A stretch of DNA of 64,000 nt from an uncultured Actinomycetota bacterium (GTDB taxonomy: Bacteria; Actinomycetota; Actinomycetes; CAVWCF01), in contig CAVWCF010000001.1 of NCBI GenBank assembly GCA_963753435.1, positions 896,001-960,000 on the forward strand, written 5' to 3'. Below, one piece after another: positions 17,965 to 29,085 of the stretch. The stretch's first letter is position 1, and each line of letters opens with the position of its first letter. Both the position numbers and the translations under genes were made by a program. The notes under the pieces were generated by a model. The model saw only the letters and a list, made by a program, of their open reading frames with translations, was not told the origin of the DNA and did not search any database.

Positions 17965-19164
17965 TCAGCCGGGCGCAGCCAGCCGCCAACCCCAACGGCG
18001 TGGCGCAGCAGTTGCACCTGTCAATCCGGCGCGGAGCGTTCGCAGGCTCTGGCGCATCGATGATCGCGGCGCCACCGAGGCCAGCGCCCGACCGGCCGCC
18101 AGCGCACGATCGACGGCCGCAATCTCATCGGGGACCTGCCAAGTCCGATCGGCGACGACCCCCGCCAGCGCCAACGCCTTGTTCAGTTCCCCGGCACGGA
18201 ATTCCTGCCGGCGCATCCGGTTCAGCAGCACGTGCAGTTCGGCGGTCGACTCCGTCGCCCGCAACTCCTGCACTGCGGTCACCAACCTCGCCAGCCCCAC
18301 CGGATCGGGCAGACCCACGACTAGCACCTGATCCGCGGCGGCCAACGCTGAAGCCCCAACACCCGGTTCTGCGACGTCGGCGGCACCGGCATCGACCACG
18401 ACGACGTCGGCGATCAAGCGCGCTACCGACCAAACCTGCTCCAGCGCCGTGGGTGGCGGTGGCGTTCGGATCGGACGCGCAGTCCCAGTGAGGATGCGCA
18501 ACCGATCGCTTACCTGCGGCGCCAACCGCGCCAGCGCCGGTAGGTCTAGCCCGGCCTGGTTGGCGGCTCGCGCAGCCGCCAACACCCCCGCGTGGTCATC
18601 CAGAACTCCGGCCATCTGCGCCAGCGAGCCGACTCGGTCGTCGGCGTCCACCAACAGAGTCGAGGAACCGGCAAGAGCCCACTCTGCGGCCAGATTCAGC
18701 GCCACGGTGCTTCGCCCCGGCGCACCTGGCGGCCCCCAGACGACGACCAGCCGGCCAGCGGAATCGACCGCCGTCGCGGATTCCGTTGGCAGGGCCGCGT
18801 CGACCACCGGCTCGCTGAGCACGGCTTCGGCCAAGGCCGTCAGGATCGCCTGAGCGTCGACCGCTCCACTGACCACAACGTCAACACGCCATTGCCGCAG
18901 GCGCCGCTCGGCTGCCTCGTCGCGGGCAACCCCGACGACTCGCATCCCATGCGCTCGCAGGTCGTCGATGACCCGGGCATCCAGGGCCCGGTGCTCGGCG
19001 GAGATAACGGCGACGTCGGCCGTCCCGGCGCGGGCGACGGCTCGGACCTCGGTCAGGTCCACGCAGCGGCGGACCAGGGTCCATTCCCCCCGCTCGGACA
19101 AAGCGGCGGCGACCTCGGCATCCAGGCTCCGGTCCGCCAGGGCGCAAACCACGCTCCCGGTCAC
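17965..19164 (-). CDS. CpaE/TadZ-like protein: pseudo-receiver + MinD/ParA-like ATPase
   Basis: Receiver-like N-terminus (ADVAVIS, no acceptor Asp), deviant Walker A GPPGAPGRST, LLVDAD, VVVVDAG, VLLNR. Confidence 0.85.
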   Translation of the reverse strand: MTGSVVCALADRSLDAEVAAALSERGEWTLVRRCVDLTEVRAVARAGTADVAVISAEHRALDARVIDDLRAHGMRVVGVARDEAAERRLRQWRVDVVVSGAVDAQAILTALAEAVLSEPVVDAALPTESATAVDSAGRLVVVWGPPGAPGRSTVALNLAAEWALAGSSTLLVDADDRVGSLAQMAGVLDDHAGVLAAARAANQAGLDLPALARLAPQVSDRLRILTGTARPIRTPPPPTALEQVWSVARLIADVVVVDAGAADVAEPGVGASALAAADQVLVVGLPDPVGLARLVTAVQELRATESTAELHVLLNRMRRQEFRAGELNKALALAGVVADRTWQVPDEIAAVDRALAAGRALASVAPRSSMRQSLRTLRAGLTGATAAPRRWGWRLAAPG

Positions 19165-19799
19165 GAAGCACCCGCTAGGCGCACGACATCGACGTCCCCG
19201 GTGCGAACCGCGCCGACGACCAGCCCGGCATCCGCCGCGTCCACCTCCACCACGACGGCCGTCTGGCCAGCCGCGAAACCAGCTTCGGCGACCACGTCCG
19301 AAACCACCGCCGCCGGCAGCACGAGCTCGGGGTCGGCACCTTCCGCAGACTGTGGCGTCACGTAGATGTCGACCTGCTCGCCCCGCCCCAGCCCCGGCGG
19401 TAGGTGCAGCGCATCCACGGGAAGGGTGACCAGCCGTTGGCTGACCGCGACTTGCGCCAGGGCGCGTACGGGCAGCAGCTCGCCGGTCGCGATCGGGACT
19501 GCCAGCGTCCGCCCGGCCGGCGATTCACCGGCGGTGCCCACGTAGCGGTCCACGCCGTCATCAAGTCGCACACCCACGAGGCGGATGTCCGCGGTGGTGA
19601 GCGTTGTCCCGGCGGGGAGATCCGCCGCGGCAGCCCACACCAGAACCGACTCGTCGGCGGCCGCCACTACCCGAGTACCGAGGACCACCGAACCGAGCAC
19701 CAGCAGCAGTCCGATCACCGCACGCGGATTCCCCCAGCGGGTTGCGGACACTCGATTGGCTCGCCTGGCGGGCAGGTCGGTGGGCGATGTTGGGGTCAT
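19161..19799 (-). CDS. SAF-domain, CpaB/RcpC-like membrane-anchored protein
   Basis: TM helix GLLLVLGSVVLG, SAF motif VWAAAADLPAGTTLTTADI...PIATGELL, RcpC-like LGRGEQVDIYVT. GTGA-coupled to the ATPase gene. Confidence 0.85.
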   Translation of the reverse strand: MTPTSPTDLPARRANRVSATRWGNPRAVIGLLLVLGSVVLGTRVVAAADESVLVWAAAADLPAGTTLTTADIRLVGVRLDDGVDRYVGTAGESPAGRTLAVPIATGELLPVRALAQVAVSQRLVTLPVDALHLPPGLGRGEQVDIYVTPQSAEGADPELVLPAAVVSDVVAEAGFAAGQTAVVVEVDAADAGLVVGAVRTGDVDVVRLAGAS

Positions 19800-19965
19800 G
19801 GTCACAAGGGCTCCCAGTGCGGCGGAACGGGCATGGTCCCCGAACGCGGCGAAAGCGCCGGAATGATTTCCACAGCCCACTCAACCGCGCGATCACACCT
19901 GTCACACTGGGGCAGTTGATCTCCGTAGGGGATCGGTTGATACCAGTTGGCTTGAGGGAGTTGAG

Positions 19966-20181
19966 TTGGCACCGCGATTCCTCACCTTGACCGACGTGGC
20001 CGAGATGCTGAACATCTCCTCGGCCCAGACCTATGCGTTGGTACGCAGCGGCGACTTGCCGGCGATCAAGGTGGGCGGGCGCGGTCAGTGGCGGGTTGAG
20101 GCGGCGGTCCTGGAGGAGTACATCCAGCGGCTGTACGCGCAGACAAGAGAGCAGGTAGGGCGCGGTCTCGTCGAGGACTGA
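19966..20181 (+). CDS. Small Xis/BldC-like winged-HTH DNA-binding protein (71 aa)
   Basis: FLTLTDVAEMLNIS..TYALVRSGDLPAIKVGGRGQWRV. GAGGGAG SD before TTG. Confidence 0.9.
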   Translation: MAPRFLTLTDVAEMLNISSAQTYALVRSGDLPAIKVGGRGQWRVEAAVLEEYIQRLYAQTREQVGRGLVED

Positions 20182-20216
20182 ACTCTGCCGGCAGGCGGGC
20201 GCTCGCCCGAGTCGGA

Positions 20217-20741
20217 CTAGCGCCAGGAGAGCAAGGCCAGATTGGCGGTCGGGAAGCAGAGCAGCTCCGGATCGGATCCCCGCTGCAAATCCACGGTGTC
20301 GGCGCCGACTGAGGTGATTCGGCCCCGAATCCGGGTTCCGTCAACCAACGCCAGGGCGATCTCGCCGCCGTCCACGAGCCTGCGCAGCACCGCCGTGAGC
20401 CCATAGCCGGCGGCGACTGCCGACTCCAGCGCAGGATCCCGAGCCCCTTCGCCCAGCCCGGTCACCTGAGTGACGGCAGCCAGCACGACCAGAGCCTCCA
20501 CGGTGTCGGCACCGCGCAGCAGGCACCAGTCGGGGCCGACATCGACCACGGTCCCGCGGGCCCAGTCGGCCCCGGTCACGCGCATGCCGACCTCATCCCC
20601 CACCGCAGCGGCCAGCCGATCAACAAGGCGGATGCGTGACCGCTCCGCCACCAGGCGCTCCGCGATCTCGCCCTCGTTCTCGGCGACCTGCTCGCGGTCC
20701 CAGCTGTCCGCCAGGTCTGCAGCGACTTCTTCCCAACGCAT
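20217..20741 (-). CDS. Conserved hypothetical protein (174 aa) with two Sm/Hfq-like repeats
   Basis: Start re-assigned to ATG 20741 (MRWEEVAADL), 7 nt after TACGGT. Internal repeats RGTVVDVGPD / RGRITSVGAD. The fold is inferred. Confidence 0.82.
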   Translation of the reverse strand: MRWEEVAADLADSWDREQVAENEGEIAERLVAERSRIRLVDRLAAAVGDEVGMRVTGADWARGTVVDVGPDWCLLRGADTVEALVVLAAVTQVTGLGEGARDPALESAVAAGYGLTAVLRRLVDGGEIALALVDGTRIRGRITSVGADTVDLQRGSDPELLCFPTANLALLSWR

Positions 20742-20777
20742 GCGGTCAACCGTATCCCGGGTATCCACAAGCGGGCC

Positions 20778-20806
20778 TTGACCGCACCAAAACGCGCGCT
20801 TATGGT
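20778..20806 (+). promoter_or_regulatory. Housekeeping-type promoter of the lysM-Rv3235 operon
   Basis: TTGACC (20778-83)-N17-TATGGT (20801-06), followed by a GAGG SD and GTG 20844. Confidence 0.75.
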
Positions 20807-20843
20807 CCGAGCCACAGCAAACGACATCAAACAGAGGTAAATC

Positions 20844-21458
20844 GTGCCAATAACCGTTGACGCAGTCGCCGCACCGCTCGCGTCCGCCGCTTTCTGCTTC
20901 GCCGCCGGCTGGATCGGCCTCGCGCTGACGGCCAGGTTGCTGGGTCGCCTGCCCGGGGTTGTGGGGACCCTGGCCCGTCGAATCGCGGACAGCGTTACCC
21001 CGAGGTTCGTGCGCACCGCGATAGCCGCAGTCGTCGGTCTTGGGCTGGGCGCGGGTCCCGCCACTGCCGCCGAAGACCCGCTGCCACGGTTGGACCGCGT
21101 ATCCAGCGGCCAACAGTTGGGGGTTACCCCAAGCGCCTACCCACCGGCGACGCCACCGGCGACTTCGGCGGCCGACCCAGCCGCCACTGCCGCGGCTGAC
21201 CCAACCTCTCCCGCTGCCGACCCAACCTCGCGCACGGCTGCAGCGTCCGTCGACGCAGCGCCGGTGCCCTACGTGGTGAAGCGCGGCGACACGCTGTGGG
21301 CGATCGCGGCCAAGCACCTGCCCCCGACCGCCACAGCGGCGGATGTCGACCGAACGTGGCGGCAATGGTGGCTGGCGAATCGCACAGTGATCGGCGCCAA
21401 TCCGAACCTGATCCGTCCCGGACAGGAACTGGCGCAACCGGAAAGTGCGGCTCGGTGA
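20844..21458 (+). CDS. Membrane-anchored LysM domain protein
   Basis: Hydrophobic N-terminal segments, Ala/Pro/Thr linker (AADP x4), YVVKRGDTLWAIA...WWLANRTVIGANPNLIRPGQEL. Confidence 0.9.
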   Translation: MPITVDAVAAPLASAAFCFAAGWIGLALTARLLGRLPGVVGTLARRIADSVTPRFVRTAIAAVVGLGLGAGPATAAEDPLPRLDRVSSGQQLGVTPSAYPPATPPATSAADPAATAAADPTSPAADPTSRTAAASVDAAPVPYVVKRGDTLWAIAAKHLPPTATAADVDRTWRQWWLANRTVIGANPNLIRPGQELAQPESAAR

Positions 21459-22072
21459 TGAACGAGACAGCGACTTCGAACGTCAATTCCGTCGTGAACG
21501 ACGAGTCAACAACTGCGGGTGCTGCGGCCGTGCACCGCGGACCTCGGCTGCGCTTGGTGCCCAAGCTGGAATCGATCCCCGTCCCGTCCGGGGCAGTCGC
21601 CGACGCCCCGTCGACCCCGGCGCCGCCAGCGTTGACGGGCGCGGCCCCGGTCCAGGGAACGCTGGCCCTGGCCTTCGAATTGCCCAGCGGGGTGCCCGCG
21701 GCTCCGGAACCCCCTGACCTTCAGGTCCTGGGGTCCGCTACCGACGACGAATTGCGGAATTGGGCCGGCATGCTCGGGGTCGCCCTCATCGAGGTCGTCG
21801 CAGGCCTCCGGCCGCTGCGCCAGGTCGCCGGCTGGACGACGCACCGGGTCGGTCAGCAACTCAGCAGGCACCTGCGGTCAGCGCCCACCGCTCGACGAAA
21901 CAGCGGGGATCGCGGCAGAGCACGATTGCGCTCGGTCCATGTGACGCTGGTCAGCCCCGAGGCGGCAGAGGCAACGGTCGTCGTAGCTCAGGACAGCCGG
22001 GTGCGTGCCGCGGCACTTCGCCTACAACGGCGGCACGGCAAGTGGGTATGCGCCGCGTTCGTGGTCGCATAA
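21458..22072 (+). CDS. Rv3235 family protein
   Basis: QGTLALAF, EVVAGLRPLRQV..W, EATVVV...RVRAAALRL...W.C. TGATG overlap with lysM. Convergent with secA. Confidence 0.85.
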   Translation: MNETATSNVNSVVNDESTTAGAAAVHRGPRLRLVPKLESIPVPSGAVADAPSTPAPPALTGAAPVQGTLALAFELPSGVPAAPEPPDLQVLGSATDDELRNWAGMLGVALIEVVAGLRPLRQVAGWTTHRVGQQLSRHLRSAPTARRNSGDRGRARLRSVHVTLVSPEAAEATVVVAQDSRVRAAALRLQRRHGKWVCAAFVVA

Positions 22073-28317: not shown

Positions 28318-29085
28318 CTAGTCCAGACCGACCCGGCGCGACACCCGACCATGGTCCTGACTGGGTTGCTCCCCTACGGGAATCACCTGCTGCCGGGCAA
28401 CAGCGTCGCGCGGATGGGTGATGCTGACGACGGCGTCCACGTTCCAGCCCGCGGCTCTGGCAGCACGGGCCGCTTCCAGCGCCGTGGAACCGGTGGTGAC
28501 AACGTCATCGACTAGGACCGCGCGGCCGGCACCGCTCGGAGCGCGGGCGCGCAGCGCGCCGTGAACATTGCCCCGCCGATCTGCGGCCCGGAGCCGACTC
28601 TGATCCGGTCCGCCGCGTACCCACTGCAGCGCCAGCGACACCTGCACCCGGATACCCGCGGCGCTGAGGAGCGCCGCAGCACCGAGGGCCAGTTGGACCA
28701 CTGGGTCCTGGGGCCGGCGCAGTCGATTTCGAGGCCGCTGCGGGATCGGGAGCAGCGTCACCGCATCACCCTGGGCGCGATCACACTGGGCCCGATCACA
28801 CTGGGCCCGATCACACTGGGCCCGATCGGAGAGCAGAACCTGGGCCAGCGGTCTGGCCAACGCAGCAGATAACAGCGGGGTCAGGGCGCGCGCCCCGGAC
28901 TCCTTGAGCGCGACGACCATTCGCGAGGCCGGCGGCTCATGTGGCGCAGCCCAGGCGCGCAGCAGCCCGTCGCGGCGTTGCACCTCGACTTCGCAGGCAG
29001 CCATCGCCGCGGCGCAGTCGGCGCATAAGGGTCCGGCCCGCAGTTGGCAGCCCAGACAAGTCGGCTGCAGCAGCGCGTTCCACAC
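28318..29085 (-). CDS. comF: ComF family phosphoribosyltransferase-like protein
   Basis: N-terminal CLGC..CADC, PRPP loop VLVDDVVTTGST. Canonical position between lpqB and hpf. Confidence 0.88.
   Translation of the reverse strand: MWNALLQPTCLGCQLRAGPLCADCAAAMAACEVEVQRRDGLLRAWAAPHEPPASRMVVALKESGARALTPLLSAALARPLAQVLLSDRAQCDRAQCDRAQCDRAQGDAVTLLPIPQRPRNRLRRPQDPVVQLALGAAALLSAAGIRVQVSLALQWVRGGPDQSRLRAADRRGNVHGALRARAPSGAGRAVLVDDVVTTGSTALEAARAARAAGWNVDAVVSITHPRDAVARQQVIPVGEQPSQDHGRVSRRVGLD
28765..28827. repeat. 15-bp tandem repeat, about 4 copies, inside comF
   Basis: ctggg(c/g)ccgatcaca-type units at 28771, 28786, 28801 and partial 28816. Encodes (DRAQC)3-DRAQG. Confidence 0.95.

Follow-up and report, generated by a model that had tools for sequence, protein, structure and literature searches.

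No Hfq has been accepted for the Actinobacteria, a major phylum, and a 2026 paper states that the way in which they induce natural competence is unresolved (PMC12849477). Here we describe a gene for a predicted tandem Sm-fold protein (the Sm gene) in a 64,000-nucleotide stretch of DNA (the window; contig CAVWCF010000001.1, positions 896,001 to 960,000) from an uncultured Actinomycetota bacterium. The best cellular single-domain structural match of this protein is the cyanobacterial Hfq (Ssr3341, 3HFO). In the available text of PMC12288463, PilB is a binding partner of cyanobacterial Hfq, and RNA binding is unlikely; this Sm fold works together with a type IV filament machine. That Hfq is a single domain bound to the PilB tail in a type IVa pilus, whereas the window's protein has two fused units and a 35-residue helix, and its link to a Flp/Tad pilus is drawn from gene context only. 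Canonical Hfq (PF17209) shares the α + five-strand fold, the predicted β4–β5 assembly, and an RRER-like patch, which lies on unit 2 in most members of the Sm family but is absent from the window's protein. In contrast to canonical Hfq, the Sm family has neither YKH nor F42/Y25-like aromatics, is a tandem fusion with a patchy distribution, and does not pass the Pfam model (best E-value 0.14).

Four further systems bear comparison. ORF137 (2X4J) is the only solved chain that matches both units in one superposition, and its viral relatives also match; however, identity is 16%, the long N-terminal helix is not in the match, and ORF137 is listed as uncharacterised in the available part of PMC2883930. 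The Bacillus spore-coat Sm-like proteins (DUF2642/YwrJ/CotB, GerQ) give the best Pfam signal and the nearest named Atlas clusters. GerQ has a non-Hfq Sm-like fold and forms nine-membered rings that stack into filaments, as far as the available text of PMC11405398 goes. These are sporulation proteins of Bacillota, whereas the window's protein stays below the DUF2642 cut-off. DUF3107, the earlier proposed actinobacterial Hfq (bioRxiv 10.1101/026195, available in part), addresses the same question with a different family that needs a shuffled module order, whereas the Sm family has the unshuffled order twice; none of the Sm-family members scanned matches DUF3107. The cluster 13 locus of Micrococcus luteus (Mlut_14640-14670) has the same arrangement of HTH_17, SAF/CpaB, and CpaE, but the available text of PMC8467076 does not characterise an Sm-like gene there.

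The Sm gene family is, by its predicted fold, a tandem variant new within the Sm superfamily and is not Hfq by the features tested. This unnamed family with unshuffled Sm order was found in 184 of the 301 class genomes, and transformation phenotypes have been published for the locus that contains it. We propose, with a little less than an even chance of being right, that the Sm oligomer is a protein-binding scaffold of a Flp/Tad DNA-uptake (competence) pilus module. If so, DNA-uptake filament machines would have co-opted Sm folds in two phyla. The link to competence as such, which this reading shares with those of an RNA-binding regulator and of a partner of HTH_17, is very likely.

Predicted tandem Sm fold and self-assembly

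The minus strand from 20217 to 20741 is stop-free over 174 amino acids. Its open frame extends upstream to 406 amino acids, across the LysM gene of the opposite strand. We chose ATG 20741 as the start because most homologues open with an MRW motif, and we rejected the 406-residue reading from an upstream TTG. The translation contains both units quoted in an earlier note on this DNA, which had described an acidic N-terminal helix and two similar units. Profile-profile comparison of unit 1 with unit 2 gives a probability of 96.8 and an E-value of 2.8e-10, while 20 column shuffles give at most 1.9. The two units are a true internal duplication. In one RNA run, 6% of the words were present, with six short contigs, and this gives no evidence on expression.

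The AlphaFold2 model has a predicted local distance difference test (pLDDT) score of 95.1 and a predicted template modelling (pTM) score of 0.82. It consists of a helix formed by residues 2–35, followed twice by the elements α-β1–5. The Sm/LSm hallmark, i.e. an N-terminal helix and a five-stranded bent antiparallel sheet, is found twice in the model. In a structural comparison against 48,161 solved chains, the top match is ORF137 of Pyrobaculum spherical virus (PDB 2X4J), covering both units with a Z of 12.3 and a root mean square deviation (rmsd) of 2.5 over 108 residues. The next matches are Synechocystis Hfq 3HFO (Z 6.9), GerQ (6.7), and canonical Hfq (6.1-6.7), and archaeal and eukaryotic Sm/LSm chains also rank in the list. 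For a typical family member with a longer loop, the Z values are 11.8 with ORF137 and 8.1 with 3HFO. The single-domain Z values are middling, yet consistent with independent profile hints. Profile matches to solved structures, all of them sub-threshold, include the Hfq proteins of E. coli and Synechocystis. Searching the solved structures with the single protein sequence gave no match, and Foldseek gave no PDB match at E<=0.001, the best being ORF137 at 1.9e-3. A Tudor/KOW fold was rejected, the Spindlin/KOW rows of Foldseek having an rmsd above 12 Å. Atlas recognition is borderline (2287), and its named matches, all below 0.9 and taken as leads only, have the Bacillus spore-coat Sm-like proteins as nearest clusters (0.78-0.81).

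No Pfam model passes for the query and 28 members of the family, and no NCBIfam model for three members. The Pfam signals below cut-off are mostly Sm-like in the 28 members (DUF2642 in nine, Hfq_1 in three, and Hfq, GerQ, and SM-ATX in one each). The Hfq signal (PF17209) has an E-value of 0.14, below the Pfam cut-off, and is absent for the query. For DUF2642/CotB-like (PF10842), the query scores 14.5 bits against a curated cut-off of 22.7, and the best member has an E-value of 7e-6. The protein is predicted by modelling to be two fused Sm (Hfq-fold) domains. The tandem Sm fusion inferred in the earlier note is supported by the confident model, the Hfq, SmAP, and LSm chains among the structural matches, and the internal duplication. 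One of its assignments needs correction, namely the Asp equated with the Sm1 Asp of Hfq: the conserved Asp is D148 (227 of 230 members), which sits two places later.

The three-copy model scored 0.88, and the best control 0.00. Of 30 proteins solved as pairs, 20 attained the assembly mark, as did one of 23 solved as single chains; these counts hold only roughly here as the use of our own alignment and of three copies lies outside the calibration. Model runs agree in at least 90% of contacts, with pLDDT of at least 81. In the predicted inter-chain contact, β4 of unit 2 (160-164) lies on β5 of unit 1 (90-94) of the next chain. This is the canonical Sm β4–β5 contact, and it takes in the most conserved residues, namely R42, R120, V145-D148, and P164. 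Both faces are engaged in a single copy only, and the three copies form an open chain in the order 1-3-2 with no confident closing contact. Self-assembly of the copies through the Sm interface is supported by these models. The earlier note had suggested oligomer modelling and envisaged a fused pseudo-dimer that could form a ring; fusion and β4–β5 joining are predicted, but a ring was not obtained.

We also inspected mean-field covariation in 230 sequences (effective number 213), a shallow alignment in which pairs are not independent. The strongest covarying pairs between unit 1 and unit 2 are 82-173, 83-170, 77-172, and 84-118. Over the 25 predicted contacts, mean z is 1.05 for the within-chain equivalents and 0.55 for the between-chain contacts, the background being 0. 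Covariation supports the β4–β5 contact inside the chain.

In the proposed mechanism, β4 of unit 1 would pair with β5 of unit 2 inside one chain, and β4 of unit 2 with β5 of unit 1 of the next chain in a head-to-tail manner. The product would be either a filament or a ring with at least three chains, presumably displaying one long acidic helix per chain. By analogy with the docking of cyanobacterial Hfq on PilB, this assembly may dock on the cytoplasmic side of the pilus machine, on the CpaE/TadZ-like ATPase or on TadA. It would be an accessory or control part of the pilus and not its core, because the pilus genes persist without the Sm gene in one streamlined family.

Conserved locus and its probable link to competence

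The gene order secA, DUF6459, LysM, Sm gene, HTH_17, SAF, CpaE-like ATPase is near-fixed (Table 1). The window's HTH_17, SAF, and CpaE-like genes match the descriptions of Mlut_14660, Mlut_14650, and Mlut_14640 of M. luteus, respectively, in the available text of PMC8467076. According to the same text, deletion of the SAF gene lowers transformation 10^4-fold, point mutations (single-nucleotide polymorphisms) in the HTH_17 gene raise comEA/EC promoter activity, and the HTH_17 gene resisted deletion. The HTH_17 family has conserved Ser and Arg columns spaced like the mutated S46 and R64 of the M. luteus protein. By gene order, Mlut_14670 probably corresponds to the Sm gene, since it flanks HTH_17 on the opposite side and ten named Micrococcaceae loci have a PAS kinase past the ATPase. 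The available text of PMC8467076 names Mlut_14670 as PAS kinase, yet writes the operon as 14650/40/30, a probable locus-tag slip. Among the literature searched, the Mlut tags of the locus are named only in PMC8467076, and the supplement texts of PMC8467076 and PMC6667448 gave no hit. M. luteus needs two tad clusters starting with tadA, which are reported without tadZ in the available text of PMC4322843.

The Sm gene, SAF, and the ATPase lie on one strand (17965-20741) and are interrupted by HTH_17 on the opposite strand; no terminator-like site was found in 19700-20900. The three genes may form a non-contiguous operon, and its read-through would then be antisense to the HTH_17 regulator. At two loci (L008, L042), the Sm gene stands directly before SAF-CpaE with no HTH gene between. 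No tadA or tadB family recurs among the top clusters of open reading frames within 10 kb of the Sm gene at 41 loci.

Table 1. Coordinates of genes and candidate DNA elements in the window, with neighbour frequencies counted over loci that have enough flank
Feature	Position	Strand	Remarks
TadZ/CpaE-like (MinD/ParA-type) ATPase	17965..19164	-	65/66 loci
SAF-domain RcpC/CpaB-like membrane protein	19161..19799	-	Pfam SAF; 77/80 loci
DnaA-box-like element, TCCACA core, HTH_17/SAF spacer	19867..19875	+	T before core; fails strict pattern
HTH_17 (excisionase-like) regulator	19966..20182	+	Convergent with Sm gene; Pfam HTH_17 E 5e-14; 72/82 loci
Predicted tandem Sm-fold protein gene (174 aa)	20217..20741	-	Helix 2-35, Sm unit 1 39-94, linker, Sm unit 2 115-173
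DnaA-box-like element, TCCACA core, upstream of Sm gene	20761..20769	+	18/62 spacers versus 1.1 in shuffled
Sigma70-like promoter match TTGACC-17-TATGGT for lysM-DUF6459	20778..20806	+	1 found, 0.1 expected; consensus match only
Direct repeats CAAAC-N5-CAAAC, 10-bp period	20818..20842	+	Just before LysM start
LysM protein, hydrophobic N-terminal segment	20844..21458	+	Divergent from Sm gene; Pfam LysM; 65/74 loci
DUF6459 protein	21458..22072	+	Overlaps LysM stop, convergent with secA; Pfam DUF6459 E 2e-26; 51/52 loci

Distribution of the family and of the orphan tad cluster

A profile of 11 sequences collected 2,696 clusters (50% identity) at E<=0.001. The family matches 23 of 31 related genomes. 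Its 184 class genomes nearly always hold a single copy (146-row profile); with the same profile, families f28, f3, and f103 gave no Sm-gene match in 20 genomes each. A phylum-wide draw with a 28-row profile matched 27 of 301 genomes, and most of the weak matches in it also lie in the same gene context. Because only a few candidates were scored in each genome, and two diverged copies escaped these searches and were later found by position, negatives mean 'not found'. The class and related-genome tallies include the unpublished genomes G008, G030, G330, and G337, at most two per tally. Named loci carrying the Sm gene include those of Arthrobacter, Knoellia, Cryptosporangium, and Demequina. No account of the family or its fold was found in the literature searched, subscription papers and database annotations being outside its reach. 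The earlier note states that Actinobacteria lack a recognised Hfq, which agrees with our search: PF17209 has no match in the window's own genome, which is 98% complete, while the control was detected in 6 of 14 genomes.

We then compared the Sm gene with TadB of an orphan tad cluster. The window's own genome has comEC and an orphan tad cluster beside prfB, without cpaB/cpaE. Across the 301 class genomes, both genes are found in 171, neither in 92, the Sm gene only in 13, and TadB only in 25. Hence 263 genomes are concordant, and the exception is family f103, to which 18 of the 25 TadB-only genomes belong. Of the 20 genomes of family f11, 11 have the Sm gene, and these same 11 have TadB. Five TadB-only genomes were checked: two have a diverged Sm gene in place, two (f103) do not have it, and one has only an unrelated SAF locus.

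Several observations weigh against the scaffold reading. Family f103 keeps TadB in 18 of 20 genomes, with an Sm match in 0 of 20. In two f103 genomes, SAF and DUF6459 have no Sm, HTH_17, or LysM gene between them, and a search of five f103 genomes did not find HTH_17. This co-loss means that the Sm gene tracks the HTH_17 regulator at least as well as it tracks the pilus. When five of the 13 Sm-only genomes were searched again, orphan-type TadB was again not found, and four of them keep a SAF orthologue. The co-occurrence of the Sm gene and TadB is among kin, without the profile of an unrelated control gene. No Sm-gene mutation was seen in the M. luteus screen tables within the available text of PMC8467076. 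An RNA role would also account for the rim-type arginines, which 209 of 230 members retain. Finally, the three-copy model closed no ring, and its passing of the assembly mark may be a memory of solved Sm rings.

The f103 losses also bear on a different reading, in which the Sm protein is a putative partner of HTH_17, e.g. an anti-repressor whose acidic helix would mimic DNA and free the competence genes. We hold this reading to be rather unlikely. It would account for the joint loss of the Sm gene and HTH_17 in f103 and for the retention of both at two loci where LysM is gone (L095, L096). Likewise, five Sm-negative large genomes hold only distant HTH_17 paralogues (E about 1e-6), and the N-terminal helix has a median charge of -4 with conserved acidic positions. 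However, HTH_17 is missing or barely recognisable at 10 of 82 Sm loci, and weak couplings suggest that the N-terminal helix packs on the Sm core itself.

Other forms of the family and of the locus were recorded. Two loci in other classes (L041:1306-1707, L042:597-983) encode a helix and a single Sm unit at the same place, and such single-unit forms fit an origin by duplication of a self-assembling single unit. There are 67 shorter matches, which may be contig fragments. One of 92 residues (P0209), on a 310-nucleotide contig, has the source label Mycobacterium tuberculosis, probably through contamination; among the genomes of mycobacterial size that were searched, none gave a match to the family. 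Among 7,991 candidates of 372-2000 amino acids, no longer or fused form was found, which is weak evidence as lengths of 306-371 were outside the search. The two streamlined f103 genomes with loci L097 and L098 (1.3-1.5 Mb) retain DUF6459 and SAF along with the TCCACA box, and they have a CpaE-like gene that is shortened and a tad TadB that is diverged.

RNA-binding features and conserved DNA elements

The absence of the Hfq motif YKH stated in the earlier note extends to the family, as [YF]KH is found in none of 230 aligned members. The D148 column, with its near-invariant Asp, is at the position of Hfq F42. The Y25-like column, on the distal face, is variable and holds an aromatic residue (Y/F/W) in 8 of 230 members. 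On the other hand, the helix of unit 2 aligns with the RRER patch of Hfq. The R-x-R pattern there is found in unit 2 only, and two arginines of that helix are 92% and 97% conserved. A further conserved His/Arg-Arg loop co-varies with β2. The window's protein and its three closest relatives have lost both the arginine patch and this loop, with the locus kept. The window's copy has a net charge of -12 (aligned part) and an isoelectric point of 4.5, compared with family medians of -1 and 6.2.

Two readings depend on these residues. In the first, which we consider doubtful, the protein is a dedicated RNA-binding competence regulator whose unit 2 arginine patch would bind or anneal com/tad messages or the antisense overlap with HTH_17. 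The conserved patch and loop speak for it. Patch size is reported to set the annealing activity and rates of Hfq (PMC9037510, in its available part), and competence of M. luteus is under unexplained post-transcriptional or physiological control (PMC12849477). The missing Hfq-type residues, the family charge, and the loss of the arginines at a retained locus speak against it, and R120, D148, and their neighbours sit in the predicted subunit interface. In the second reading, the protein is the missing general Hfq orthologue of Actinobacteria, a chaperone of many small RNA (sRNA)-mRNA pairs. Hfq chains are its best single-domain structural matches, Hfq proteins appear among the sub-threshold profile matches, and the gene is widespread and mostly single-copy. 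However, searches of entire families gave no match, the gene keeps to a single functional locus, the protein has neither the proximal nor the distal RNA site, and its best Pfam signal is DUF2642 and not Hfq (9 versus 1 of 28 members). We consider this reading very improbable. A general sRNA chaperone is unlikely at least for the window's copy, because the Hfq RNA sites are absent, the arginine patch is lost, and the net charge is strongly negative. Of the RNA or protein scaffold inferred in the earlier note, the RNA half is thus weakened, while the protein half fits better once the competence/Tad-pilus context is added.

Two intergenic elements are conserved across the loci. The 10-bp-period direct repeat before lysM, in two to four copies, is present in 44 of 62 de-duplicated spacers, 43 of them on one strand, whereas shuffled spacers give 1.5. 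It is a single strong site in its own genome. The repeat is a likely candidate operator of the HTH_17 protein, for which the literature examined gives no binding site. A role as an RNA site for the Sm protein was rejected, since the 10-bp period fits a DNA binder and the repeat persists here despite the loss of the arginines.

The TCCACA motif is found in 44 of 59 HTH_17/SAF spacers, compared with 1.1 in shuffled spacers and 3.3 in random windows. Upstream of orphan tadA, the box is found in 8 of 15 usable regions (20 fetched; loci L109-L127, across families). At control genes, the counts are 0/18 for secA, 1/11 for hpf, and 0/23 for the acyltransferase. In the window's own genome, the core occurs around dnaA, upstream of tadA (G000 C2 upstream of 7133), and upstream of comEA. 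Single TCCACA sites prove nothing, because the core occurs 169 times genome-wide, about the expectation from base composition. It is possible, from this recurrence, that DnaA or another factor controls actinobacterial competence via TCCACA boxes. A bolder combination is that the protein forms the first actinobacterial RNA-binding Sm ring, whose arginine patch would control competence post-transcriptionally within a DnaA-box regulon (HTH_17, cpaB-cpaE, orphan tad, comEA). We think this improbable; if RNA binding were true, it would be the long-sought actinobacterial Sm chaperone.

The boxes would also fit a cell-wall or cell-cycle module (LysM, MinD/Ssd-like ATPase, DnaA boxes) with only an indirect link to competence. 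Both spacers of the window have DnaA-box-like elements with the same core as near dnaA, the CpaE-like ATPase also scores weakly against Ssd/MinD models, and the HTH_17 gene of M. luteus could not be deleted. In contrast, the genetics available in PMC8467076 tie the SAF neighbour to transformation directly, and the Sm family co-occurs and shares the TCCACA box with the tad cluster. We judge such a module quite unlikely, and the competence pilus scaffold is still our preferred reading.

Two observations stand apart from the locus. The window's own 2.2-Mb genome has three Tad-type loci and a type IVa pilus cluster (G000 C1:4226-9434, C1:1280793-1281986, C2:7133-11469, C1:377243-388631). A ComF-like gene beside hpf in the window (28318-29085) encodes a short tandem peptide repeat, DRAQC x4.
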